This document shows, piece by piece, positions 3,690 to 63,314 of a stretch of DNA of 64,000 nt. The stretch is from Bacteroidales bacterium (GTDB lineage: Bacteria; Bacteroidota; Bacteroidia; Bacteroidales; VadinHA17), in contig DATKMR010000019.1 of NCBI GenBank assembly GCA_035541795.1, forward strand, positions 132,977-196,976, read 5' to 3'. Below the pieces are notes generated by a model, which was not told the origin of the DNA, ran no database searches, and saw nothing but the letters and a program-made list of their open reading frames with translations. Position 1 is the first letter of the stretch, and the number at the start of each line of letters is the position of its first letter. The position numbers were made by a program, and so were the translations under genes.

Positions 3690-6600
3690 CTATTTGATGT
3701 TAACCGGCCCGGTTTTCTTTTCTTTCTTGATGTCACTTTTGGTCTGCTTCCTGAAAAGATCCCTGAACTTGTCAAAATCCTGGCGGTAATAAAGTCCGAG
3801 ACCCTGGGTGTACGGTATTCCGTTATCGATATAGAAGTTATCATTGGAACGGTTGAAGAATTTGAACCTGATCTTTTCATTGATCTTGTATTCCACATTA
3901 AAGACTCCGGTGAACGAGTTTGTCCCGCTTGCGGCACCCGTTGTGCCTTGTGCCTGGGCACCGGCTACATCAAAATTCCCGTTGATTACAACCTTGTCGT
4001 TCAGCAGCTGTGTGGATAAAGCGACCTGGAGTTCCTGCGAGTTTGGCAGCTGTGTCGTTCCCGGGCGGTAAACCACACCTATATCAAAATCATTGCTGAT
4101 CTGCGAAAGCCAGTTGCTTAGCTGGTTCGACAGCATCTCCATCGTGGTCACCCCGACCGTGGCCGAGCCCATGCCTGAGGCATTTGACTGCGTCGATGAA
4201 CTCTGCTCCGAATAAAAGCTGTTCATAACGAGCAAAAACAGGAACTGACGGCTCATATCCTCATCAGATTTTATCATGCTTTTGAGATAGGCTCTGGTCT
4301 CCTCATCGGCTGTGGGCAGGTAGATATCAAAGCCGACAGTCGGGTTGAAAAGCTTCCCCGAAAGCAGGAGATGGCATTCCACGGGAATCCGTTCATTTGA
4401 TTTCTCCGCGGGAAGCATTCCGGGCATTATGTCATTAAGGGAGGCTTTCGTTTTATAAATAGCTTTAAGATCAATATCTGCATCCTCAACATCGCCGTTG
4501 AATAATATCTTTCCGCCGTTTTCGACATTGAACGACTTGTTAATAAGATTTCCCAGGGTAAAAAGATAGTCGCCGTCTTCGATAGTATAATCGCCGAAAA
4601 TTTTGAAAGCTCCCTTGCTGTCGAGGCTTATATTTAAATTTCCCCTCCCGGTACCTTTCATTATATCACCTGTCTTAGGATCCATAATGAGCTGTACTTC
4701 AGCATCAGGAGTGATTTCAAGATCGAACGTAAGAGCCATACCGCTTGCATTAGGCGGTGGTACCATTACTACCTGCTGCTTTTTTTCCCTGGTAACGCCG
4801 GAAGGCTGGACAAAGCTCACAAAATTATTTTCAGCCACCGACATGCTGGAATTCAGGGGGATAAAAAATTTCGTATTCCTGCCTGTCTTTGCCGAAATAT
4901 CAAACCTGAGAAGCGATCCGTCGGTCTTTATCGAGGTGACACCTGTGGCGTAAGCAGTTCCGTAGAATGTATCGTTGTCTTTTTGCCTGGTATTTATAAC
5001 CATGCAATCTTTCGGCTTTAAAGTGAGATCAACCCCGTAGTCGGTGAAATGATTATGAAGAATAATCCCGTTCAGCATGGCGGTATTTCCTTTTTCGTCA
5101 CGCAGGGTAATGTTGTTCAGCCTGATCCCCTTCCTGTCGAACCTGATAGTGTCGGAAAACCTGAATTTAGCCTGGAGATAATCAATCTTCAGCGAGACAT
5201 CCTGGGCCCACAGCGCCCCGGTGAGATATGGTTTGCCAGGTTCGCCGCTTAGCTTCACCGTTCCCGTCACCTTGCCGCCTATACCCGACGCGAAAAAATT
5301 AAGAAGGGGATTAAGGGCATCTATCGGAAGCTTATCTGTCTTTGCTGTTAAATCCATATACTGTTGCTCCGGATCGTAGTAACCCGATATATCAAACATT
5401 TTTACTCCATCGAGGTCGTTATTTGCCTTGATCTCAGCAACTTTCCTGTCGCTGTTCCATACCGATCCGATCCTGATATTCCCATAGCTGCAGCTGAGCA
5501 ATGAGAAATTCAGCAGGCTGATATCACTTTCGAACATGAAGCTGTGATACAGGTTCGTAAGGTTGATTTTCCCGTTAAGGGTTCCGTCTATATTCAGTTT
5601 AAGTGCATTCGGTCCGCTGTTGTTTTTCTCGTACAGGCTGTTTATGGGCTTGAGACTGATTCCATTAACTTTAACAGCGAGCGTATCACCAAGGCTCTCT
5701 GAAACGGCACCGTCTATCCTGAGAAAGTTGTCACCGTTATTTATGCTGAACCCCGAAATTCTTACCGAGCTAGAATCGGTGATTACCCTGGCAGGATTTA
5801 TTTTCCAGACCTTGTCTCTCAGGTCCATCTCCCCCGGTAGAAGGTTGACCTCCATGCTGGTATTCCTTCCATGATCGGAGCGTGAAAACACCCCGTTTAG
5901 TTCTATATTGCCCCTGTTTATCTCCTTTCCATCGTTAACCCAGCCGAGGCTGACATTATAGTGATCAGGGATGGCAGTGACATCAAGTTTGAGATTGTTT
6001 AAGTCCGATATACCTGACAGGTTCAGATTTTTTGACTTCAGCCTGGCATTGAATGTCGTATCCGTAAACCTGATGTCAGCCTTGAGATCTGAGAACTCGT
6101 TGTTCCCTGACGAGAATGACTTAGCCTCAGCGGAGATCTGGATAATGCTGTCGGGAAGGACCCTGCCTTTAATGGATGAGTTCTCGGCAATCTGAAGGCC
6201 CGTTCTCAGGAAGCCGTTCAGCTCATCTGTCTTCTTGAGGTTTATATTGAAGGTAAAATCATTTTCAGACCTGCTTACCGGTAAAAGTTTCTTCCCGTAA
6301 TGCGATGGCATAAGAACTGTCAGCGCGTTGCTGACGACATTTCCAAGGCCTGAAAAATTATACCTGCCTCTAAGGTCCATGTCGGCAAAGTCGGTCTTAA
6401 GCGAAATTGCGGGCCGGTTGTTCTCGACAAATGTTTTTAGTGAGAAATCATACAGCTCCAGGTTGTTACCATATTTCCTGAAACTTGAATTGAGAAGCTT
6501 TATTTCCCCGTCGAGGTTATCAATATTGCTGCCCTTGAAATTGGCGGTAAGAAGAAGCGCAGCTGAAGAAGTGGTATCAGCTTTATCGATTTTAAGCTTA

Positions 6601-13038: not shown

Positions 13039-13101
13039 TTATGATCAAATGTACTGAAAAATAACATAATGATGCAGGCCACAGTGATCACCGACATTGA
13101 T

Positions 13102-13581
13102 CTATTCGGATCCATAGAAAGCCTCCCTGCCCGGATACCTGAATCTTCTTTTTGCTATTTCACCGGGATAAAGAAAAAATTGTGCCTCTGCCTCTGCGCA
13201 AAGTTTTTCCTGTCCGTCAAACATCCTGCAAAGTATCCTGGCCATCTTTTCACTTTTTTCAATTACTTCTGCCCTGATTGTAAGCTCGCCTTTATTGATA
13301 TAAACCGGTGCAAGGTATTTTATTCTGATCTCGGAGGTCACTCCTGCGGTCCCGACTTTGACAGAAACACACCAGCCGCCCGTCTCATCAAGAACAGAAG
13401 CAATGATGCCTCCGTGAAGTATGTTTGGATAGCCCTGGTAAAATTCTCCCGGCATCCATTTTGCCTCAATATATTCCTCTGTTTCAATAAAGCTGAGCCT
13501 GAGCCCTATAGGATTGGAAACACTGCATCCGAAGCATTTGTTCTGCTCCCTGTCGTAAGGGTTGTGTATTTTTCTATTCAT
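13102..13581 (-). CDS. PaaI-family hotdog-fold thioesterase
   Basis: Motif NILHGGIIASVLDETGG. I start the gene at MNRKIHNPY, whose ATG overlaps the upstream stop (ATGA). The longer ORF extension overlaps the DnaJ-like gene. Confidence 0.75.
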   Translation of the reverse strand: MNRKIHNPYDREQNKCFGCSVSNPIGLRLSFIETEEYIEAKWMPGEFYQGYPNILHGGIIASVLDETGGWCVSVKVGTAGVTSEIRIKYLAPVYINKGELTIRAEVIEKSEKMARILCRMFDGQEKLCAEAEAQFFLYPGEIAKRRFRYPGREAFYGSE

Positions 13582-24728: not shown

Positions 24729-26210
24729 TTATTCAAATGATTTCCTCGAATAATTTGGAGCCTCCCTGGTTATTGTAACGTCGTGGGGGTGGCTTTCAAT
24801 GATACCGGAGTTGGTGATCCTTACAAACCTGGCCTCCTTCTTAAGTGTCTCGATGTTACCGGCGCCGAGGTAGCCCATCCCCGCACGAAGACCTCCTGTC
24901 ATCTGGTATATCACCTCCGACAGCGATCCTTTGTAAGGAACCCTGGCTTCAATACCCTCGGGTACCAGTTTCTTTATATCATCTTCAACATCCTGGAAAT
25001 ACCTGTCTTTAGAACCCATCTGCATGGCTTCAATCGAACCCATCCCCCTGTAAGTCTTGAATTTTCTGCCGTTATAGATAATTGTTTCACCGGGGGATTC
25101 CTCGACGCCGGCAAAAAGCGACCCTGCCATTATGGAATCGGCACCTGCTGCAATAGCCTTGATAATATCGCCCGAATAACGGATTCCTCCGTCGGCGATT
25201 ACAGGTATGCCTGAACCTTCAAGTGCCTTGGCAACGTTATAAATTGCGGTTAACTGAGGTATGCCCACGCCGGCTACTATCCTCGTTGTGCAGATCGATC
25301 CGGGACCGATACCTACTTTTACACCGTCGGCTCCTTCCTTGACGAGCCGCTTGGCTGCCTCTGATGTTCCAATGTTTCCTGCAACAACATCAACACCTGG
25401 ATAATTTTTCTTTATCTCTTTCAGGAAGTGGATCACATTTTTTGTATGCCCGTGCGCCGTGTCAATTACGATTGCATCCACGTTAGCATTTACAAGGGAT
25501 TCGGCCCGCTCGAGCGTATCTGCAGCAATTCCCACTGCTGCGGCTACCATCAGGCGTCCCTTGTCGTCCTTGCAGGAATTTGGACGATCCTTTGTCTTGG
25601 TAATATCCTTGTATGTGATAAGACCGATAAGCTTGCCTGTTTCATCCACGATAGGAAGCTTCTCAATCTTGTGTTTTTGAAGTATTCTGGCTGCAGATTC
25701 AAGGTTGGACTGGTGATCGGTGGTTATCAGGTTTGTTGTCATCACCTGTGAAATCTTCCTTGACGCATTGCTCTCAAAACGAAGGTCCCTGTTGGTAACA
25801 ATTCCTTTCAGAATGCCGTTTTTGTCCACTACCGGTATACCTCCGATCCTGTACTCTTTCATCAGGTTCAGAGCCTCCGCAACAGTGGCGTCGGGATGGA
25901 TTGTCACAGGATCGTATATCATTACGTTTTCAGCCCTCTTCACCTTCTTTACCTGTGATGCCTGCTTCTCGATGGTCATATTCTTGTGAATGACCCCGAT
26001 CCCGCCTTCCCTTGCGATAGAAATAGCAAGCTCAGCTTCCGTTACGGTGTCCATGGCAGCAGAAACGACAGGGGTGTTGAGCCTGATATTTCTTGAAAAC
26101 AAGGTGCTTATGTCTACTTCCCTGGGGAGAACTTCGGAATATGAAGGAATCAGAAGAACATCATCAAAAGTCAGTCCTTCAAAGAGTATTTTATCATTAA
26201 TAAAAGACAT
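24729..26210 (-). CDS. guaB: IMP dehydrogenase
   Basis: N-terminus [27 protein letters not shown], a CBS pair, and the catalytic loop [11 protein letters not shown]. The upstream ORF extension is not conserved-looking. Confidence 0.96.
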
Positions 26211-30852: not shown

Positions 30853-30913
30853 GAAGGTTTGAGGTTTAAGGTTTGAGGTTTTAGGTTTAAGGTTTATAGT
30901 TTAAGGTATAAGG
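30853..30913 (+). repeat. Heptamer tandem repeat (AGGTTTR) x about 8-9, filling the rlmI-tex spacer
   Basis: Reads AGGTTTG AGGTTTA AGGTTTG AGGTTTT AGGTTTA AGGTTTA TAGTTTA AGGTATA AGGTG and runs straight into the tex start. Confidence 0.9.
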
Positions 30914-33063
30914 TGATGGCAGTAAATAAGAAGGTTGAATTAATAGCGGGAAAACTCGGGCTTCATGAATGGCAGGTAGAAAACACCATCAGGTTGCTCG
31001 GCGATGGTGCAACAATCCCGTTTATAAGCAGGTACAGGAAAGAAATGACAGGGAGCCTCGATGAAGTTAAGCTGCTTCATATAAAGGAGGAGTACGAAAG
31101 ACTGGGTGAGCTCGAAAAAAGAAGGGATGCTATAATTAAATCGGTTGAAGAACAGGGGAAAATGACCCCTGATCTTCACGAAAAAATTGAAAAGGCGCTT
31201 ACAATGGCCGAACTGGAGGATATTTACCTTCCTTACAGGCCGAAGCGCAGGACCAGGGCCACAATTGCAAAAGAAAACGGGCTTGAGCCGCTCGCGGCTG
31301 AAATCCTGAAACAGGAACTGAAGGATCCTTATATTGAAGCTGAAAAGTATTTAAGCGAAAATGTAAAGGATTCCTCTGAAGCAATTGCCGGTGCATCTGA
31401 TATAATTGCTGAGTGGGTAAATGAAGATGAGAAGGTAAGGAAGCTGCTCCGTTCACTGTTTGAAAAGGAAGCGGTAATATATTCGAAAATTATAAAGGGC
31501 AGGGAACAGGAAGGTATCAAGTATTCAGACTACTACGATTGGTCGGAGCCTCTTCGCAAATGCCCTTCGCACAGGCTCCTGGCCATGAGACGGGGTGAGG
31601 AGGAAGGATTCCTGCGACTGGCGATCGAACCAGATGATAAACATGCACTGGATATACTGGAGAGGCAGTATGTCAGGTCGGGAAATGCGTGCGGCGTGAT
31701 CGTAAAAGAGGCGGTTAAGGACAGCTGGAAAAGGCTTCTTTCATCTTCAATGGAAACTGAATTCAGAAACATCTCAAAGGAGGAAGCCGATGAAGAGGCT
31801 ATCAGGGTCTTCGCTGAAAACCTCAGGCAGCTTCTTCTGGCATCCCCGCTCGGAGAGAAAAACGTCCTGGCAATCGACCCCGGTTTCCGGACTGGATGCA
31901 AGCTCGTATGTCTCGACAGGCAGGGAACCCTTGTACATAACGAGACTATTTACCCGCATCCTCCCCAGAATGAAACTGCTGCTTCTGTACGAAAGATATT
32001 AACGCTTGTAAGCGCTTACAAAATCGAAGCTATTGCCATCGGTAACGGTACTGCCAGCAGGGAAACAGAGGATTTCATGCGCTGGATTAAATTCGACCGC
32101 GACCTGCAGGTGTTTGTGGTAAGTGAAGCAGGTGCTTCGGTTTACTCTGCATCAAAAATTGCCAGGGATGAATTTCCCGATTATGATGTTACCGTGAGAG
32201 GAGCGATTTCGATCGGTCGCAGACTGATGGATCCATTGGCAGAGCTTGTTAAAATAGATCCAAAATCAATAGGCGTAGGGCAGTACCAGCATGATGTCGA
32301 CCAGGCAAAACTTCAGGAGGCACTCGATAATGTGGTTAAGAGCTGCGTGAATGCCGTGGGTGTCGAAGTCAATACCTCATCGGGTCACCTTCTGACATAT
32401 GTTTCCGGACTGGGACCCCAGCTGGCTCAGAATATTGTCGATTACAGGACTGAAAACGGACCTTTTAAGTCGAGAAGCGAGCTTCTCAGGGTGAAAAGGA
32501 TGGGGGCGAAAGCCTTTGAGCAAAGTGCCGGGTTCCTCAGGATAAGAGGTGCAATGAATCCATTGGATTTCAGCGCGGTTCATCCCGAAAGCTACCATGT
32601 TGTTGAGAGTATGGCAAAAGATGCAGGTGTGGAGATTGCAGATCTCATCTCAAGCGAGGATGCAAGGAAGAAGATCAACCTTGAAAAGTACGTCACGGAA
32701 AAAACAGGTCTTCCAACTTTGAAGGATATCATCGACGAACTTGCAAGACCGGGCAGGGACCCAAGAACGAAAATCAGGGAATTCAGGTTTGCGGATATTC
32801 ATTCGATAGATGATGTGCAGGAAGGGATGGTTGTCCCCGGAATAGTTACAAATATTACCAAATTCGGTGCCTTTGTCGATATCGGGGTAAAGCAGGATGG
32901 ACTGGTGCATATTTCAAATCTCAGGAAAGGATTTGTAAAGGATCCGACCGAGGTGGTAAAGCTTCACCAGCACGTTATGGTAAGAGTTCTCCAGGTCGAC
33001 CAGGAACGAAAGCGCATACAACTTTCAATGAAGGATGTTAATGAGAGCCGGACTGAAAAATAA
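30913..33063 (+). CDS. tex: Tex-like transcription accessory protein (S1 RNA-binding)
   Basis: N-terminus ...IPFISRYRKE..., a YqgF-like domain, HhH motifs, and a C-terminal S1 domain (GIVTNITKFGAFVDIG). Start is GTG 30913 or ATG 30916. Confidence 0.92.
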   Translation: MMAVNKKVELIAGKLGLHEWQVENTIRLLGDGATIPFISRYRKEMTGSLDEVKLLHIKEEYERLGELEKRRDAIIKSVEEQGKMTPDLHEKIEKALTMAELEDIYLPYRPKRRTRATIAKENGLEPLAAEILKQELKDPYIEAEKYLSENVKDSSEAIAGASDIIAEWVNEDEKVRKLLRSLFEKEAVIYSKIIKGREQEGIKYSDYYDWSEPLRKCPSHRLLAMRRGEEEGFLRLAIEPDDKHALDILERQYVRSGNACGVIVKEAVKDSWKRLLSSSMETEFRNISKEEADEEAIRVFAENLRQLLLASPLGEKNVLAIDPGFRTGCKLVCLDRQGTLVHNETIYPHPPQNETAASVRKILTLVSAYKIEAIAIGNGTASRETEDFMRWIKFDRDLQVFVVSEAGASVYSASKIARDEFPDYDVTVRGAISIGRRLMDPLAELVKIDPKSIGVGQYQHDVDQAKLQEALDNVVKSCVNAVGVEVNTSSGHLLTYVSGLGPQLAQNIVDYRTENGPFKSRSELLRVKRMGAKAFEQSAGFLRIRGAMNPLDFSAVHPESYHVVESMAKDAGVEIADLISSEDARKKINLEKYVTEKTGLPTLKDIIDELARPGRDPRTKIREFRFADIHSIDDVQEGMVVPGIVTNITKFGAFVDIGVKQDGLVHISNLRKGFVKDPTEVVKLHQHVMVRVLQVDQERKRIQLSMKDVNESRTEK

Positions 33064-34673: not shown

Positions 34674-34818
34674 ATGAGTGAGAGTTAAATAATTGCAGGT
34701 ATTACCATCAAAAGTATTAAAAAGTTGAGTCTGCAACCTCAGAAGTTGCTGATTTAACATTTATTAACCTGTATAAAGCAGGCAATGCGGCCCCGGCTGT
34801 TTTACATCATCTCATTTA

Positions 34819-34857
34819 ACTTTTTACTTTTACCTTTTTACTTTTTACTTTTACTCC
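34819..34857 (+). repeat. Short tandem repeat (CTTTTTAC-type, period 6-8) directly upstream of mutS2
   Basis: Reads ACTTTTTACTTTTACCTTTTTACTTTTTACTTTTACT. A 24-nt stretch recurs with one mismatch at 61429-61452. Confidence 0.85.
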
Positions 34858-48081: not shown

Positions 48082-49770
48082 CTATTTTCCCGACTGATAA
48101 ACAATTCTTCCGCCAACGATAGTGTATTCTATCTTTGTTTTCATTATCTCATTTTCGGGTATTGAAAACAAATCGCGATCGGTTATTACGAGGTCAGCGA
48201 GGTACCCCTTTTTAAGAATCCCTTTCCTGTCTTCCATGAACTGAGAATATGCCGAACCGGCTGTATACAGGCGGATTGCCTCTTCCATGGTGAGCTTCTG
48301 CTCCGGAAACCATCCGTTACCTTCTTCACCATGCCGGTCTTTCCTGGTAACGGCAGCATAAAGTCCTTCCATCGGGTTCAGTGGCTCAACCTGGTAATCC
48401 GTTCCGAAGGCAACCGATGCCCCAGAGTTCAGCAGGCTTTTCCAGGCGTAAGCCCCCCTGCACCTTTCAATTCCGATCCTCTTCTCACAGAACCTCTTAT
48501 CAGTAATACAGTGTGTGGGCTGCATTGATGCAATAACTCCGAGAGTTGCAAACCTTGGTATATCGCTTTCGGCAAGTGTCTGTGCATGCTCAATCCTGTG
48601 CCTGCTGTCGCGTTTACCGTTTATCTTCTGGGCCTTCTCGTAGGCATTAAGAACCCAGTTGTTTCCTTTGTCGCCAATTGCATGAGTACCGATCTGGAAA
48701 CCCATTTTATCACCAAGGATTACCATTTTCTCAAATTTTTCATATGGCATCATTGCAAGCCCTGATGTGACCGGGTTATCGCTGAAAGGTTTAAACATTA
48801 AGGCGGTCCCTGAACCAATTGTTCCATCAATGAAGACCTTGAGATATCCAAACCTGATCCAGTCTGAATCACGTGGGTATATCTTCTCAAGCTTCAGGAA
48901 AAGCTTAAGCTTCGCCGAGTCATCGGTAAGAAACTCACCTGCATCCACACGCAGGGTCAGCAGGCCCTCACTCCTAAGCTTGCCGTATTCATTAAGGTCG
49001 GCACTGCCAGGAACCTGGACACTGGTTACCCCGTATTCCCTTGCCTCTTTCAATGCAAGCAGGTAGCCCGAACGGGTTCTTTCCATTTCCTCTGAAGGAG
49101 TACGGACTGTCTTTACATCCCCGGGCTTTATGAGGGATTCGGCATTTTCCTTAAGGATTCCGGTAGGTTCCCCGGTAGCCGGATCTTTCTGAATTTCTCC
49201 GCCAAATGGGTTTTGGCTGTCCCTGGTAATACCAGATTTTTTAAGAACATAGCTGTTAACAAGAACCGAATGACCATCGGCCCTGCTGAGTATGACCGGG
49301 TTATCTGGAGAAACTCTGTCAATAAGCTCCTTGGTGGGCCATTTTTTGTCGTAGAACATTTCGTGATCCCAGTGACCACCCCTGATAATCTCGCCGGGTC
49401 TTGATTTTTTTACCTGTTCTTCAACCCTTCGTGTAATGAAAGCAGGATCCGTGGTGTATCGCAGCTCAATAAAATCAGGGTCAAGCGGCCCGAAATGGAC
49501 GTGTGCATCATTGAATCCCGGCAAAACCAGCCTGTGAGCAGCGTCTATCACTTGTGTTCTGCCGTCCTTTATGAATACAGATATATCAGAGTTTTTTCCC
49601 GTTGCAATAATCTTTTCCCCTCTGACAGCAAGTGCTTCTGCATACGGCATTGTTTCATCGAGTGTGAGAATCTTGCCATTCAGTATCACAAGGTCAGCGG
49701 TCTCTGCGGATCGTCTTGAAAAAATTGGCAAAAGTGTCGCCAGGGCTACAACCATCAGAATGAATTTCAT
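48082..49770 (-). CDS. Secreted amidohydrolase-family protein (Amidohydro_3-type metal-dependent hydrolase)
   Basis: Signal peptide; LPGFNDAHVHF metal-binding HxH; later H/D ligands (GTHAIGD, RIEHAQ, FGTDY). Confidence 0.8.
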   Translation of the reverse strand: MKFILMVVALATLLPIFSRRSAETADLVILNGKILTLDETMPYAEALAVRGEKIIATGKNSDISVFIKDGRTQVIDAAHRLVLPGFNDAHVHFGPLDPDFIELRYTTDPAFITRRVEEQVKKSRPGEIIRGGHWDHEMFYDKKWPTKELIDRVSPDNPVILSRADGHSVLVNSYVLKKSGITRDSQNPFGGEIQKDPATGEPTGILKENAESLIKPGDVKTVRTPSEEMERTRSGYLLALKEAREYGVTSVQVPGSADLNEYGKLRSEGLLTLRVDAGEFLTDDSAKLKLFLKLEKIYPRDSDWIRFGYLKVFIDGTIGSGTALMFKPFSDNPVTSGLAMMPYEKFEKMVILGDKMGFQIGTHAIGDKGNNWVLNAYEKAQKINGKRDSRHRIEHAQTLAESDIPRFATLGVIASMQPTHCITDKRFCEKRIGIERCRGAYAWKSLLNSGASVAFGTDYQVEPLNPMEGLYAAVTRKDRHGEEGNGWFPEQKLTMEEAIRLYTAGSAYSQFMEDRKGILKKGYLADLVITDRDLFSIPENEIMKTKIEYTIVGGRIVYQSGK

Positions 49771-50045
49771 AATTGAATGATATTAATGTGAAATTATTAA
49801 AAATAGGAACACCGGTGGATATTTTTTAATTCTTTAGCTACACGGTACCAGGTTTCATAAATTATTATAATCTGATATCGTACGTGTCTGTCACTTTTCA
49901 GGTCTTTGCCCGGGCCCACCATTAAGTAAATGACCCGTGTACATTCAAGCTGATGAGCTGCCTGCTGAGTGGCTTTGTCGGCAAGCCGGGGTCAGGTTTG
50001 ACGGGTGCAACATGAAGTGGTCTAATACTTTGGTCGCTTCTAATG

Positions 50046-50326
50046 AAAAGGGTTAGCATAAGACCCCCTTTCCAAATCTTTCCCCCCTGGGGGAAAACAT
50101 AAAAGGGGGTCAACATAAGACCTCCTTCCCAAACCTTTCCCCCCCTGGGGGAAAACAAAAAAGGGGGTTTACACCGGACCCCCTTTCCAAATCTTTCCCC
50201 CCTGGGGGAAAACAAAAAAGGGGGTCAACACTGAACCCCTTTCCAAATCTTTCCCCCCTGGGGGAAAACAAAAAAGGGGGTCAACACTGAACCCCCTTCC
50301 AGCCTTCCCCCATGGGGGAAGGTGTA
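50046..50326 (+). repeat. Left array: about 5 tandem units of a 56-58 bp double-hairpin G5/C5 repeat
   Basis: The consensus unit is A(5-6)GGGGGT-CAACAYTRA-ACCCCCTTTCCAAAYCTTTCCCCCCTGGGGGAAAAC. The first and last units are degenerate. Confidence 0.95.
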
Positions 50327-50348
50327 AAAAAATGATTAACTTTCCGTA

Positions 50349-50732
50349 ATGTCATCTAAATATATTCTTAGACTCAGCACTCAGAATCATGAAGCTGATA
50401 AAAACATTATCGGGAAGGCCCGTATTTTGAGAAAAAATATGACCAAATCTGAGAAAATGTTATGGGAGCTTCTAAAGAATAACAAGCTATGTGGTTGTCA
50501 TTTCAGGAAACAACATCCATATGGGATTTATATAATAGATTTCTTCTGTTATAAGGCCGGGCTGGCAATAGAAGTTGATGGAAAAATTCATCTTGGAAAG
50601 AGAGAATATGATGAAAAAAGAGAAGAATATCTTATCAGGTCGGGATTGCGAATACTGAGATTCAAAAATGAGGATATTGAATCCAGACCTGAATGGGTAA
50701 AAGAAGAAATTATATCTCATTTGCACTGCTGA
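50349..50732 (+). CDS. DUF559 endonuclease-domain protein (Vsr-like PD-(D/E)xK fold)
   Basis: 127 aa. ...ARILRKNMTKSEKMLWELLKN...FRKQHPYGIYIIDFFCYKAGLAIEVDG..H......D..R..YL...GLRILRF.N.DI matches the DUF559 pattern as I remember it. Confidence 0.75.
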   Translation: MSSKYILRLSTQNHEADKNIIGKARILRKNMTKSEKMLWELLKNNKLCGCHFRKQHPYGIYIIDFFCYKAGLAIEVDGKIHLGKREYDEKREEYLIRSGLRILRFKNEDIESRPEWVKEEIISHLHC

Positions 50733-50740
50733 TCTAATGA

Positions 50741-50956
50741 GCTTTTCCCCATTGGGGGAAAACATAAAAGGGGGTCAACATAAGACCTCCTTCCCAAACC
50801 TTTCCCCCCTGGAGGAAAACAAAAAAGGGGGTCAGCACTGAACCCCCTTTCCAAATCTTTCCCCCCTGGGGGAAAACAAAAAAGGGGGTTTACACCGGAC
50901 CCTCTTTCCCAAACCTTTCCCCCCTGGGGGAAAACAAAAAAGGGGGTCAGCACCGG
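50741..50956 (+). repeat. Right array: about 3.5 tandem units of the same 56-58 bp repeat, same orientation
   Basis: Units at 50764-50820, 50821-50877 and 50878-50935, plus partial copies at both ends. Confidence 0.95.
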
Positions 50957-51186
50957 AAGGATTGATGCCTATATTTCAGCATGAGAAAAAGCAAAGCGGC
51001 ATACTTTTAAAAAATGGAGAAGCCAGTTCATAAACAAGGGTGAACCGTAAAGGAGGCTGGAAATAGAAATGGAATGTTAATTCAGTCTACAGGGTTTAAC
51101 TGTCATTTAACATACCCTTAAGAAAATTTCCATGCTGCTTTTCGTTACAGAGTTAAAAAACAGGTATTTTCGTAAAAATCTAAATA

Positions 51187-51903
51187 ATGAATATTGCACT
51201 GATCGGTTACGGAAGAATGGGCCACGAGATTGAGGAGATGGCCATTAAGCGGGGACATACGATAAAGCTGATTATAGATATAAATAACCAGCACGATTTT
51301 GAGGATCAGAAATTCAGCGATATTGACGTTGCAATCGAGTTCTCTTTTCCAGAAGCGGCTTTCAGAAATGTCAGCAGGTGCCTTAATATGAAAAAACCTG
51401 TTGTATCTGGCACTACCGGCTGGCTGAGCGATTACGGCAGGGCGGTGGAGTTGTGCAGCAAAAACGGCACCTCATTTATTCATTCTTCAAATTACAGTGT
51501 CGGTGTGAACCTTATGTTCAGGCTGAATTCGGAGCTTGCAGCTTTAATGGACAGGTTAACCGATTACAATGTGGCCATTGAGGAGATACATCATCTTAAA
51601 AAGCTGGATGCCCCGAGCGGTACCGCGATATCACTTGCCGAAGGCATTGTTAAGAAAACGAAGAAATACAATGGCTGGTGCATTCCCGAAAAACCGGATC
51701 CCTCGAAAGTGCCAATTCGTTCGGTAAGGGAGGGTTCAGTGCCCGGTACTCATAACGTGGAATGGGACTCCGAAATTGATAAAATATCAATCCGGCATGA
51801 AGCAAAAGGAAGAAAAGGGTTGGCCCTTGGTGCCGTTCTGGCTGCTGAATTTATTGCAACCAGGAAGGGAGTCTTTACGATGAACGACGTACTTGGTTTC
51901 TGA
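51187..51903 (+). CDS. dapB: 4-hydroxy-tetrahydrodipicolinate reductase
   Basis: MNIALIGYGRMG Rossmann start; EEIHHLKKLDAPSGTA motif. Confidence 0.93.
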   Translation: MNIALIGYGRMGHEIEEMAIKRGHTIKLIIDINNQHDFEDQKFSDIDVAIEFSFPEAAFRNVSRCLNMKKPVVSGTTGWLSDYGRAVELCSKNGTSFIHSSNYSVGVNLMFRLNSELAALMDRLTDYNVAIEEIHHLKKLDAPSGTAISLAEGIVKKTKKYNGWCIPEKPDPSKVPIRSVREGSVPGTHNVEWDSEIDKISIRHEAKGRKGLALGAVLAAEFIATRKGVFTMNDVLGF

Positions 51904-61177: not shown

Positions 61178-61216
61178 GGAAAAGACAAAAGACAAAAGTC
61201 AAAGGACAAAAGTCAC
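61178..61216 (+). repeat. Purine-rich short tandem repeat (GACAAAAG-type) upstream of the tRNA-Leu pair
   Basis: Reads GGAAAAGACAAAAGACAAAAGTCAAAGGACAAAAGTCACC. A related GTCACAGGACAAAAGTG recurs at 61567-61583. Confidence 0.8.
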
Positions 61217-61364: not shown

Positions 61365-61455
61365 ATAAGGCAAAAGGGAAAAGGTAAAAGGCAAAAGGAG
61401 CAAATCCTGATTTTATTCTTTACTCTTTACTTTTTACCTTTACCTTTTTACTTAT
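61365..61455 (+). repeat. Imperfect inverted repeat of (AAAAGGN)n and (CTTTTTAC)n arms between the two tRNA-Leu genes
   Basis: Purine arm ATAAGGCAAAAGGGAAAAGGTAAAAGGCAAAAGGAG (61365-61400), 17-nt spacer, pyrimidine arm CTTTACTCTTTACTTTTTACCTTTACCTTTTTACTTAT (61418-61455). The ends ATAAG/CTTAT pair, and the interior is roughly 70 percent complementary by eye. Confidence 0.8.
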
Positions 61456-61597: not shown

Positions 61598-61664
61598 ATT
61601 CCACTCACTTTGCTCAATCATTTTGACTTTTATCTTTTCACTCTGATCTTTTCACTTTTATCTT

Positions 61665-63314
61665 TTATCTTGTATCTTGTATAAGTGGTTTCATCAGCTT
61701 CATCACAGGGTAAGGTACTGTACTTTTTTCCACTCCAAGTGGAATAAGATAGTCATCAAAATAATTCCAGAGAAGCAACCCGTCGTCTGATTGCGGTTCC
61801 AGCATATAAAAAGCGAGCCAGGCCAGAGGCTGGTGCATATCCACAAAATAACTGCCAGCGGGTGCAGTGATGTTTTTGCGGACAAAACTGCCTTCTGCTT
61901 TCACCAGGAAATGATTCCCGTATGATGCCTTCCCTTCGCGGCTGTATCTTGTAATACTGAATATCTCTGCTTCAATTTTTTTGCTATGCTCAAGCAAAGA
62001 GACCTTTATTCCATGCTGCATAAGCTTTTCTGCAACAGCTTTCAATTCAGAAGGGAAGATATAACCGAATGGCACTGTCGCCTCGATATCAGGCTCAAAA
62101 TGGTTGTAATGCCTGACATCTTGTATCCAGAGCAGCCTTCCGGTGGGCCTTCTCCTTGTCCTTCCTTCGCGGTCCTTATATTCTTCAGTTTCACGGGTCA
62201 GCAGGTCTATTGTCCTTTCAGCAGGCGCTATGTGATATGCAACACCCTTTTTCAGAATACCTGCCTGGTTATCAATTATTTTCATTGTTGTGATGTCGGC
62301 ATCGGCGACTATATCGTGGATCTGCTTTGAATGAGAACCGGTGTACTCGAGCACCGAAACGAGAAAAAGATAATTGCTGAGAATGCGTTTTTCAAAGCTG
62401 TCGTGCGAAAATGTCTCGCTCAGAATCGCCATCCTGTTCCTGAGCCCTTCATAATTCACGAGGTAACGGGGAAGGTGTGAATACGTGGAATATGTCGTCT
62501 GTTCCCCTTCCTTTTTATTCATGTAACCATGGAAAAAGACAGGTATTCCCGACCTGTCAAGCATCGACTTTGCCGCTGCCGGAAGCAATGAATCCGATAT
62601 GAAGGCAGTGGTTGAGGGCGTTCCAGCGGTAAGAAAATCTGGAGCGTAATTAAGGGCATAACCATGCCATGAACCGTTATCCGTATGCAGATCGATAAAC
62701 AATGCAGGGTCCCAGGCGACAATGATGCTTTTGAGCAGCGCCTTTGATTCGAGGGCCTCGGCCTTGATCCCTTCGCGGTTGAGATCATATCCCTCGCCCG
62801 AAACTCTGGCTCCTGCAAGTTCAGGGCTGCCATCCTGTGAAAACCTGCTCGTGGAACTAAGCCTGTCATTTCCGTCGGGGTTATAATTGGGGCAGAAAAT
62901 CAGTATCTGGTTTTTGAGCAGGAAGGATTTCTGCCCGAAACAGATTTCCCTTATCAGCTGCATCGATGCCTCCTTTCCCTCGACCTCACCGGCATGTATA
63001 TTGGCTTCGATGTAGATCACCGGTTTCCCTGATTTTGAAGCCTCTTCAGGGGTCGATATAGCAGGATCTGAAAGAATAACCATCATAAGGTCATTGCCAC
63101 CGGCTGTTTTTCCGAAGGTCCCGACATGAGCATAAGGACCGAGAAGTCCGATAGTTTTGCAAAAACTAACCACATCGCTGTCGTGCGAAGTTTCCATATA
63201 CCGGGTTTTCTCGGCCCTGGAAAAAAGTTCAGAGGGAATTTTGACTGCCTGGCCCTGGAGAATTTGTGGAATTAAAAATAAAATGGAAAAGAGAAACCAG
63301 TGGTGTCTTGGCAT
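61665..63314 (-). CDS. Secreted M14-family zinc carboxypeptidase-like protein
   Basis: Signal peptide. Zn-ligand context IEANIHAGEVEGKEA (HxxE) and a downstream LHTDNGSWHGY. Confidence 0.75.
   Translation of the reverse strand: MPRHHWFLFSILFLIPQILQGQAVKIPSELFSRAEKTRYMETSHDSDVVSFCKTIGLLGPYAHVGTFGKTAGGNDLMMVILSDPAISTPEEASKSGKPVIYIEANIHAGEVEGKEASMQLIREICFGQKSFLLKNQILIFCPNYNPDGNDRLSSTSRFSQDGSPELAGARVSGEGYDLNREGIKAEALESKALLKSIIVAWDPALFIDLHTDNGSWHGYALNYAPDFLTAGTPSTTAFISDSLLPAAAKSMLDRSGIPVFFHGYMNKKEGEQTTYSTYSHLPRYLVNYEGLRNRMAILSETFSHDSFEKRILSNYLFLVSVLEYTGSHSKQIHDIVADADITTMKIIDNQAGILKKGVAYHIAPAERTIDLLTRETEEYKDREGRTRRRPTGRLLWIQDVRHYNHFEPDIEATVPFGYIFPSELKAVAEKLMQHGIKVSLLEHSKKIEAEIFSITRYSREGKASYGNHFLVKAEGSFVRKNITAPAGSYFVDMHQPLAWLAFYMLEPQSDDGLLLWNYFDDYLIPLGVEKSTVPYPVMKLMKPLIQDTR

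Follow-up and report, generated by a model that had tools for sequence, protein, structure and literature searches.

Repetitive extragenic palindromic sequences (REPs) are palindromes of 20-40 bp that are tagged with GTAG or CGTC at one end (PMC3733652), and the REP-associated tyrosine transposase (RAYT) found with them is an HUH Y1 transposase of the IS200/IS605-like type. A comparable arrangement occurs in a 64,000-nucleotide stretch of a Bacteroidales genome (contig DATKMR010000019.1, in the following the window), in which a gene for a 127-aa protein of the DUF559 family (Pfam PF04480; COG2852; E. coli YcjD-like) is located between two arrays of a short palindromic repeat, in the 1.4-kb interval between an amidohydrolase gene (48082-49770, minus strand) and dapB (51187-51903). 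As in the REP/RAYT systems, a single nuclease-type gene is enclosed by inverted palindromic repeats, the repeats are also dispersed in intergenic positions without the gene and form local clusters, and the cognate repeat differs between protein clades. Unlike a RAYT, the protein is a Vsr-fold PD-(D/E)xK nuclease, and no match to Y1_Tnp (HUH) was found at the locus, where DUF559 is the sole open reading frame (ORF); the units end in ACCCCC/GGGGGT instead of carrying a GTAG or CGTC tag and the number of copies per genome appears to be far lower than that of REPs. The first-pass annotation of the window had suggested a REP/RAYT-like module, and of this proposal the tie between gene and repeat holds, whereas membership in the REP/RAYT group does not. 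We lean towards the view that the locus belongs to a selfish element, analogous to REP/RAYT, which is accompanied by derivatives resembling miniature inverted-repeat transposable elements (MITEs) and whose sole enzyme is the Vsr-fold nuclease.

Three other described systems share part of these features. MITEs are likewise small (<300 bp) and non-coding, have terminal inverted repeats and sharp borders, occur at many unrelated intergenic sites and form subfamilies that look as if they had arisen by internal deletion from a longer, gene-bearing element that shares their ends, but here no target-site duplication was detected and the one partner of full length codes for a 127-aa nuclease and not for a DDE or serine transposase. 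IS200/IS605 elements also have ends that are set by hairpin-forming palindromes and cause no target duplication, but they lack terminal inverted repeats and their TnpA (HUH) acts on single-stranded DNA. The third system is the EDxHD or Vsr-like homing endonuclease I-Bth0305I (PDB 3R3P), a homodimer whose main specificity lies in a 14-bp pseudopalindrome centred on the cut (PMC3239194). A pseudopalindromic site and a selfish gene copied by host repair make it comparable, but I-Bth0305I is a multidomain protein encoded in a phage group I intron within recA, whereas the protein described here has a single domain and is encoded by a free-standing intergenic gene with its own inverted repeats and abundant gene-less derivatives. 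In line with this difference, no Rfam intron or other Rfam family scored above the gathering score at the window locus or at eight related loci.

The ORF at 50349-50732 is the only one within the amidohydrolase-dapB interval that is supported by a protein family. Tandem Repeats Finder detected a left array at 50050-50320 (period 56-57, 4.6-4.8 copies) and a right array at 50744-50957 (period 57, 3.7 copies), so that the initial description of a DUF559 gene between two arrays of a repeat of about 57 bp in the same orientation was confirmed in all coordinates. Read in register, the array consists of a remnant, four short units (S1-S4), a gene-bearing unit of 485 bp and three further short units (S5-S7):

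50044-50062, plus strand: degenerate right end of a further unit with its spacer (TGAAAAGGGTT AGCATAAG), which resembles ...AAAAGGGGGT + CAACATAAG of later units
50063-50110, plus strand: S1, gene-less unit of 48 bp with one palindrome, ACCCCCTTTCCAAATC-TTTCCCCCCTGGGGGAAAA-CATAAAAGGGGGT, architecture as in the 44-bp element of L051
50120-50168, plus strand: S2, gene-less unit of 49 bp, variant ACCTCC...
50178-50225, plus strand: S3, gene-less unit of 48 bp
50235-50281, plus strand: S4, gene-less unit of 47 bp
50291-50775, plus strand: full-length gene-bearing unit of 485 bp with A-end, DUF559 gene and B-end, layout as in L001, L008, L116, L067, L237, L238, L241 and L034
50291-50322, plus strand: A-end terminal inverted repeat ACCCCCTTCCAGCC-TTCCCCCATGGGGGAAGG with the perfect 20-nt palindrome 50303-50322 inside, family consensus ACCCCCTTCCCAACCTTCCCCCnnGGGGGAAGG
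50349-50732, plus strand: DUF559 (Vsr-fold PD-(D/E)xK) nuclease gene, 127 aa, PF04480 match
50743-50775, plus strand: B-end terminal inverted repeat TTTTCCCCATTGGGGGAAAA-CATAAAAGGGGGT, family consensus TTTCCCCCnnGGGGGAAAnnnGAAAGGGGGT
50785-50832, plus strand: S5, gene-less unit of 48 bp with one palindrome mismatch (TGGAGG)
50842-50889, plus strand: S6, gene-less unit of 48 bp, identical in sequence to S3
50899-50947, plus strand: S7, gene-less unit of 49 bp and last of the array, followed by the spacer-like CAGCACCGG at 50948-50956
50111-19, 50169-77, 50226-34, 50282-90, 50776-84, 50833-41 and 50890-98, no strand: 9-bp inter-unit spacers

A repeat unit thus has 47-49 bp in the order ACCCCC...palindrome...GGGGGT, with ACCCCCTTTCCAAATC-TTTCCCCCCTGGGGGAAAA-CAAAAAAGGGGGT as the form of the S units, and the 9-bp spacers between the units are variants of each other (CAACATAAG, TTACACCGG, CAACACTGA and CAGCACTGA). 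Because independent insertions would leave unrelated spacers, the array has most likely grown by tandem duplication of unit plus spacer. This register also corrects the previous parsing of the repeat as a double hairpin: since it places a spacer between GGGGGT and ACCCCC, the hairpin named H1 (GGGGGT-loop-ACCCCC) is not internal to a unit and is composed of the 3' end of one unit, the spacer and the 5' end of the next one. The palindromes at the gene borders were found exactly where they had been placed, CCTTCCCCCATGGGGGAAGG at 50303-50322, 26 nt upstream of the ATG, and TTTTCCCCATTGGGGGAAAA at 50743-50762, 10 nt downstream of the stop codon. The order within the gene-bearing unit is therefore A-end, 26 bp, gene, 10 bp and B-end, and its ends form an inverted repeat of 33 nt (50288-50320 and 50745-50777) with 73% complementarity. 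Each of the imperfect terminal inverted repeats of about 32 bp combines the terminal ACCCCC/GGGGGT with a C5/G5 pyrimidine-purine palindrome. With up to three mismatches allowed, the palindrome TTTCCCCCCTGGGGGAAAAC has eight matches in the window and all eight are located at the DUF559 locus, while shuffled sequences lead to an expectation of 0.02; a single stray palindrome-like match lies at 26117, away from the locus. A CRISPR array was ruled out by the 9-bp, mutually related spacers, as opposed to unique spacers of about 25-40 bp, and integron attC cassettes were rejected in view of missing core sites and the lack of cargo between the units. The best reading of the locus is one full-length copy of a small selfish element (50291-50775) surrounded by seven miniature derivatives of it in tandem.

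To see this unit in other genomes, DUF559 relatives with 48-71% amino acid identity were retrieved together with their flanks (L numbers denote the respective loci or contigs). Both ends are present in ten loci with two readable flanks, the window, L001, L007, L008, L034, L067, L116, L237, L238 and L241, with ACCCCC[TA]TCCCnnCCTTCCCCCnnGGGGGAAGG as A-end before the start codon and TTTCCCCCnnGGGGGAAAnnnGAAAGGGGGT as B-end past the stop codon, and position and orientation of the gene relative to the asymmetric ends are constant in 10/10 of these complete cases. The ten loci span at least seven gene neighbourhoods. Among the neighbourhoods of the retrieved genes are amidohydrolase|dapB (window), ComEA|rpsU (L001, L007, L068, L080), asnB|UDP-glucose dehydrogenase (L002), FIST genes (L008) and GFO_IDH|PGDH (L238), besides others. 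At L068 the B-end is kept and the A-end is truncated to half, the contig of L080 ends before the flank is complete, and L002 has complete gene-less elements on either side of the gene; the end motif was not seen in L239 and L240 (P0019, 50% identity). Apart from one isolated palindrome-like match in L008 (987), the motif in the homologue loci is confined to the surroundings of the gene. Tandem Repeats Finder did not report arrays in the homologue loci and the conserved ends became visible only by direct reading of the flanks. At least four palindromes within 450 bp occur in 2/13 gene-bearing versus 1/115 gene-less loci. In L034 (560-900) three tandem copies of the A-end, each with about 100 bp of flank, lie beside the DUF559 gene, an arrangement also missed by Tandem Repeats Finder. 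Gene and ends travel as one unit across many genomes and contexts, and the initial proposal of a general, REP/RAYT-like tie between DUF559 genes and hairpin repeats gains support from the fact that the same two ends flank homologues in other genomes and contexts; this tie withstood each attempt at refutation that could be run.

Protein and ends are both under strong purifying selection. Among the gene-bearing elements the proportion of synonymous differences (pS) is 0.64-0.84, which means that the synonymous sites are saturated, compared with a proportion of non-synonymous differences (pN) of 0.15-0.26, and the ratio of non-synonymous to synonymous substitution rates (dN/dS) is about 0.07-0.17 for pairs with computable dS. 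Over the same divergence, the mean pairwise identity in six elements is 92% for the A-end and 88% for the B-end, although these figures come from ends defined by permissive regular expressions and include some ascertainment bias, which is a first point against our interpretation. The non-coding DNA between the ends and the gene is only 48% and 36% identical. As protein and ends are conserved while synonymous sites and internal non-coding DNA have diverged, we conclude that both are functional.

The repeat is not restricted to the gene. A motif-first scan of metagenome contigs with the pattern ACCCCCTTN{5,10}TTCCCCCN{1,5}GGGGAA yielded at least 120 loci, and a DUF559 ORF is present within 300 bp at 5/120 of the listed loci (about 4%); in L067 and L116, the two ends lie on either side of the gene at a distance of about 490 bp from each other. 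As the loci come from metagenome contigs, taxonomic statements are limited. The gene-less elements, a 70-95-bp version labelled type-1 element in the form ACCCCCTT..TTCCCCCnnGGGGGAA, are mostly 69-83 bp in length and follow the scheme ACCCCCTTTCCCG-TTTCCCCCnnGGGGGAAA-[8-25 bp]-CCTTCCCCCnnGGGGGAAGG-TTGGGAAGGGGGT, and L051 contains a one-palindrome form of 44 bp like the S units of the window. Their borders are sharp, the flanks are AT-rich (with much T on the 5' side and much A on the 3' side) and unrelated among loci, and the palindrome arms are nearly invariant across copies with variation in the loops only. A single-stranded copy of 80 nt is predicted to fold into one long hairpin (-24.8 kcal/mol, z=-3.5). 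As 74% of random positions lie inside a long ORF, 26% of the loci would be expected outside of long ORFs, but this was the case for 115/120 listed loci. Gene-less versions with sharp ends are thus dispersed at more than 100 unrelated intergenic sites. In viral contigs a loose version of the DNA pattern gave 19 apparently unrelated matches, 0 of them with DUF559. Composite elements were considered for two widely spaced pairs of ends, with 4.9 kb between them in L123 and 1.3 kb in L146, but these enclose the his operon and tadA, respectively, without a transposase, and were rejected in favour of independent copies. A second, unrelated long-hairpin repeat (GGCACCTTCGCTAAACTTG...CAAGTTTAGCGAAGGTGCC) is recurrently nested between the palindromes of DUF559-type elements (L002 3409-3470; L074 1211-1335; L035, L036, L100, L111, L140, L142 and L150), and L074 (1211-1335) and L152 (2328-2335) with flanks of 92-99% identity represent a clean presence/absence pair for this repeat.

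The almost exclusively intergenic position would also fit an explanation in which the palindromes serve the host as REP-like DNA or RNA elements with a structural or regulatory role, such as operators, mRNA stabilisers or terminators, and DUF559 is an immobile host gene for a nuclease that is autoregulated by them or processes them, for instance in cruciform cleavage or repair. The purifying selection on the gene, its vertical inheritance at some sites (ComEA|rpsU in L001, L007 and L068; L067/L116) and the presence of ycjD beside a dispersed repeat in 5,426/5,426 E. coli genomes point in the same direction. On the other hand, more than 100 sites with sharp borders and unrelated flanks, in combination with identical internal-deletion subfamilies at unrelated loci, imply copying of whole elements, the gene is found in at least seven unrelated neighbourhoods and the cassette is missing from relatives of the window locus. 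Furthermore, the elements are not canonical intrinsic terminators, which we had considered separately, because the T-run precedes the stem and does not follow it. We therefore regard a host function as rather unlikely.

Comparisons of the same site in related genomes connect the two forms of the element. L067 and L113 are orthologous, with flanks of 78-90% identity and 100% identical ends, but the ends are separated by 454 bp with DUF559 in L067 versus a 9-bp spacer in L113. The gene is also present at this site in the more distant L116, which is why it was probably ancestral there, and other variants of the site are found in L035, L056, L069 and L086. The spacer of L113, AGGTTTTTAACTCC, is the spacer of gene-less copies at many unrelated loci, the internal spacers AGGTTTTnaCTCC and ATGATTTTACTCC recur at unrelated loci, and the second gene-less subfamily (ATGATTTTACTCC) corresponds to the fused borders of the gene-bearing element. 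The occurrence of one and the same internal-deletion form at unrelated sites is what copied non-autonomous elements usually show. For the window locus itself, a comparison of the amidohydrolase-dapB interval had been suggested: in a relative with 75% DapB identity, the amidohydrolase gene and dapB are separated by a gap of 170 bp and the cassette is absent, and none of four other dapB-upstream regions contains a C4..G4 palindrome. A different site is empty in L110 and L048 but filled in L122 and L139, although its borders have diverged.

Alternatively, DUF559 could be a homing gene that invaded an independent MITE family moved by another enzyme, in which case it would cut the gene-less copies centrally and be copied in by repair with the ends as homology arms. 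The gene indeed occupies the exact place of the short variable spacer of gene-less copies, one site occurs with and without the gene in related genomes, and the closest characterised relative of the protein is a homing endonuclease. However, about 30 bp of homology in each arm is little for recombinational homing, gene loss is more parsimonious than gain at the L067/L116/L113 site, no other mobilising enzyme with these ends was found among the 120 listed loci, and distant clades with their own palindromes imply a long co-descent of gene and ends. In our opinion such an invasion is unlikely.

The last of these arguments is based on more distant DUF559 clades. Homologues from Flavobacteriia (35-37% identity) are bracketed by TTCCCCTCTaaaaAGAGGGG...CGGGGTGTGT and ACACCCCG...CCCCTCTTTcaAAAGAGGGG, with no further palindrome of this kind in any of the 20-kb loci, and a homologue in a metagenome-assembled genome of the Oscillospiraceae is bracketed by CCTTCCCCTGGGGGAAGG...GATGAGGGTTA and TAACCCTCATC...CCTTCCCCCAGAGGGAAGG. 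In a set of 80 viral or proviral contigs picked by protein alone, core small DUF559 genes are bracketed by long inverted repeats of the CCCTCTCCC..GGGAGAGGG type of up to 96 bp (L157), and an inverted-repeat score of 14 was reached by 13.7% of 73 DUF559 genes versus 0.4% of 454 control ORFs; the more distant and mostly longer DUF559-like ORFs on phage contigs are without these palindromes. With the proteins ordered by UPGMA (unweighted pair group method with arithmetic mean), the palindrome type tracks the protein clade. The contig of L067 contains a second DUF559 gene of another clade (13100-13438), 3.3 kb from the first one, with the palindrome CCCCTCCttttgaAGGAGGGG + GGGGTGG of the Flavobacteriia type and not the C5/G5 type, and since two clades with different types are present on one contig, the palindrome type follows the element and not the host. 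Different DUF559 clades carry different cognate palindromes.

For loci selected by protein, a perfect pyrimidine/purine palindrome is located within 200 bp of 22/28 core DUF559 genes, and the palindrome density is 2.01 per kb near these genes versus 0.037 per kb elsewhere. This 54-fold enrichment, obtained for loci picked by protein alone, speaks for a general association of such palindromes with core DUF559 genes. That the repeat could prove to be widespread with no enrichment near DUF559 genes had been named as an argument against the tie; the family is dispersed and mostly gene-less, but the enrichment is seen and the tie stands. The first-pass annotation had further mentioned odd extensions of DUF559 ORFs that look like translated repeats, and this is true for P0007 and P0017, whose terminal extensions are translated repeat. 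The stop codon of the upstream purN gene lies in the loop of the outer hairpin of an element in L010 (9870-9925) and at the equivalent positions in L011 and L012, and the last PurN residues (..IPL*) are therefore encoded by the repeat.

Palindromes of the CCCTCTCCC..GAGGGGG type are also found at the 3' end and downstream of ycjD in E. coli K-12, together with a duplicated remnant of the 3' end of the gene (L013, NC_000913.3 1347000-1354000, locus 4195-4420). The 66 bp downstream of ycjD (L013 4195-4260) are a repeat that is dispersed in E. coli; across 5,426 genomes of this species, the median is 17 places per genome. BoxC is a 56-bp repeat of E. coli for which no function or mobilising enzyme has been recognised, and the ycjD-adjacent repeat is probably BoxC, to judge from sequence and copy number. 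Like the elements described here, BoxC consists of G+C-rich imperfect palindromes with pyrimidine/purine arms in low tens of copies, but in contrast to them ycjD has the repeat on its 3' side only. The published copy number of BoxC is about 22-32 (PMC2267715).

The assignment of the window protein to DUF559 is clear (PF04480, E=1.2e-32, 112.4 bits versus a cut-off of 20.6), whereas the NCBIfam model PRK09767 gave 77 bits, which is below its equivalog cut-off of 218, so that the protein is not a YcjD equivalog. The Vsr-like catalytic core (D...ExDG..H) is intact, with D64, E75, D77 and H81 invariant in 21 relatives. A profile search against the PDB retrieved 3HRL, an uncharacterised Neisseria protein (9e-34), and the catalytic domain of I-Bth0305I (3R3P, 3.3e-5), and the same two structures were the top two Foldseek matches of an AlphaFold2 model with a predicted local distance difference test score (pLDDT) of 84 (3R3P: probability 1.00, template modelling (TM) scores 0.60/0.75). 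Judged from the profile search and the predicted fold, the homing endonuclease I-Bth0305I is the nearest relative that has been characterised. PADLOC returned one weak partial match to DpdF and PHROGs only weak and uninformative matches. Just under the two bacterial or phage nucleases, Foldseek (model mf68eed51f859) ranked proteins of the mitoribosomal large subunit of Toxoplasma and Tetrahymena, and this similarity of a predicted model suggests that DUF559-like domains have been recruited into apicomplexan and ciliate mitoribosomes.

The relationship of DUF559 to Vsr raises the question of an ordinary Vsr-type mismatch repair gene that lies by chance among unrelated tandem repeats. The palindrome centre in the window is CCTGG, a Dcm-type site, and in Caulobacter the DUF559 protein VsrA has a functional link to a cytosine methyltransferase and causes DNA damage when this methyltransferase is missing (PMC12907096), which indicates that at least some DUF559 members act on the chromosome. 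The window protein, however, has no match to Vsr (PF03852), and E. coli Vsr (1cw0) is found only at rank 13 by fold. The direct neighbours of the gene, to which the search for a methyltransferase gene was confined, are the amidohydrolase gene and dapB and not a methyltransferase gene, and the gene-repeat association is far above chance. As the centres in relatives are CCAAGG or CCTTGG, the idea of a Dcm/Vsr site was ruled out, and we consider the chance explanation as a whole highly improbable.

How a selfish element with a nuclease as sole enzyme might multiply can be sketched along the lines of I-Bth0305I. The nuclease, probably a dimer like its homing relative, would recognise the palindromes of its own ends as duplex, cruciform or hairpin, and the enzyme is predicted to nick or cut there. 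Host repair could then copy between elements that share these ends, a homing-like gene conversion that might run both ways, towards the form with the gene or the form without it; local tandem arrays would result from slippage or unequal repair. It seems feasible that copying driven by repair in this way both spreads and maintains the gene-bearing element and its MITE-like derivatives.

Several observations weigh against this view. To our knowledge, no strand-transfer activity has been recorded for a PD-(D/E)xK nuclease alone, and since such a nuclease alone cannot transfer strands, the DUF559 protein is not a classical transposase. The related spacers of the window array reflect local duplication and not repeated insertion. 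Among 73 complete elements, direct repeats of 3 bp and of 5-9 bp were found at 0 and direct repeats of 4 bp at 5, which gives no indication of a target-site duplication of fixed length. The copy number per genome seems modest, with no second copy in the window and two strict matches on a 692-kb contig, and an all-against-all comparison did not yield a clean filled/empty pair with precise borders for a miniature copy. In addition, the same ends can enclose another small ORF: the protein-coding inserts between paired ends among the 120 listed loci are DUF559 (482-524 bp) and, in a 368-bp element of L069 (3590-3957), a 57-aa ORF (MKDPITVNLRSKV...) that stands where DUF559 would be expected and precedes a hairpin. 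This ORF has no PHROGs match.

The inability of the nuclease alone to join DNA, the different ORF in L069 and the presence of DUF559 at only 4% of the listed motif loci could be explained if the elements were moved in trans by a classical transposase and DUF559 were a passenger, such as a nuclease that serves addiction or defence. Between the ends at the 120 listed loci, including spans of 0.8-2.5 kb, however, no DDE or HUH transposase was found, so that the transposase-bearing version expected in this case is missing from them. The fixed position and orientation of the gene relative to the asymmetric ends in 10/10 cases and the combination of one gene family with different palindromic ends across phyla would be unexpected for casual cargo, and with the weak and partial match to DpdF as the sole PADLOC hit a role in defence gains little ground. 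Passenger cargo thus appears quite unlikely to us, and we maintain the selfish element with its own nuclease as the best supported reading.

A broader version of this reading is that stand-alone DUF559 genes in general, which form one of the commonest nuclease families without a characterised role, drive an unrecognised and ancient class of prokaryotic mobile elements. In every clade the Vsr-fold nuclease would then recognise pyrimidine/purine palindromic ends of its own and, via host repair triggered by its action, spread both itself and MITE-like derivatives, to which orphan repeats such as the enterobacterial BoxC would belong; we put this forward tentatively and think that it is possible rather than probable. 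In the literature on DUF559, YcjD, COG2852 and Vsr-like nucleases we did not find a link to such repeats, but an earlier description elsewhere is possible. If correct, these proposals would provide a testable function for a very large protein family of which even E. coli K-12 has a member, and the Vsr-fold PD-(D/E)xK nucleases would join HUH RAYTs and DDE transposases, the enzymes known so far to multiply short palindromic repeats. They would also suggest where orphan palindromic repeats of high G+C content, BoxC among them, come from, and account for the odd extensions of the 'PLGEG/PSPxGEG' type that gene callers put on DUF559 ORFs. Finally, short and strictly conserved ends in combination with a 127-aa protein would constitute a compact system for sequence- or structure-specific DNA recognition.

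Apart from the DUF559 locus, the window contains tandem arrays of heptanucleotides at 30854-30914, 34815-34855, 61180-61215, 61367-61452 and 61621-61682. Heptanucleotide arrays (AAGGTTT x8.7, TTTTACT, AAAAGAC, CTTTTAT) recur in the window and in related contigs, with CTCACCA x15.6 at 5320-5428 in L002 and several arrays in L008. Furthermore, L087 and L088, which are otherwise 92-99% identical, differ by an insertion of 1.27 kb (L087 1760-3029 versus L088 3342-3353).

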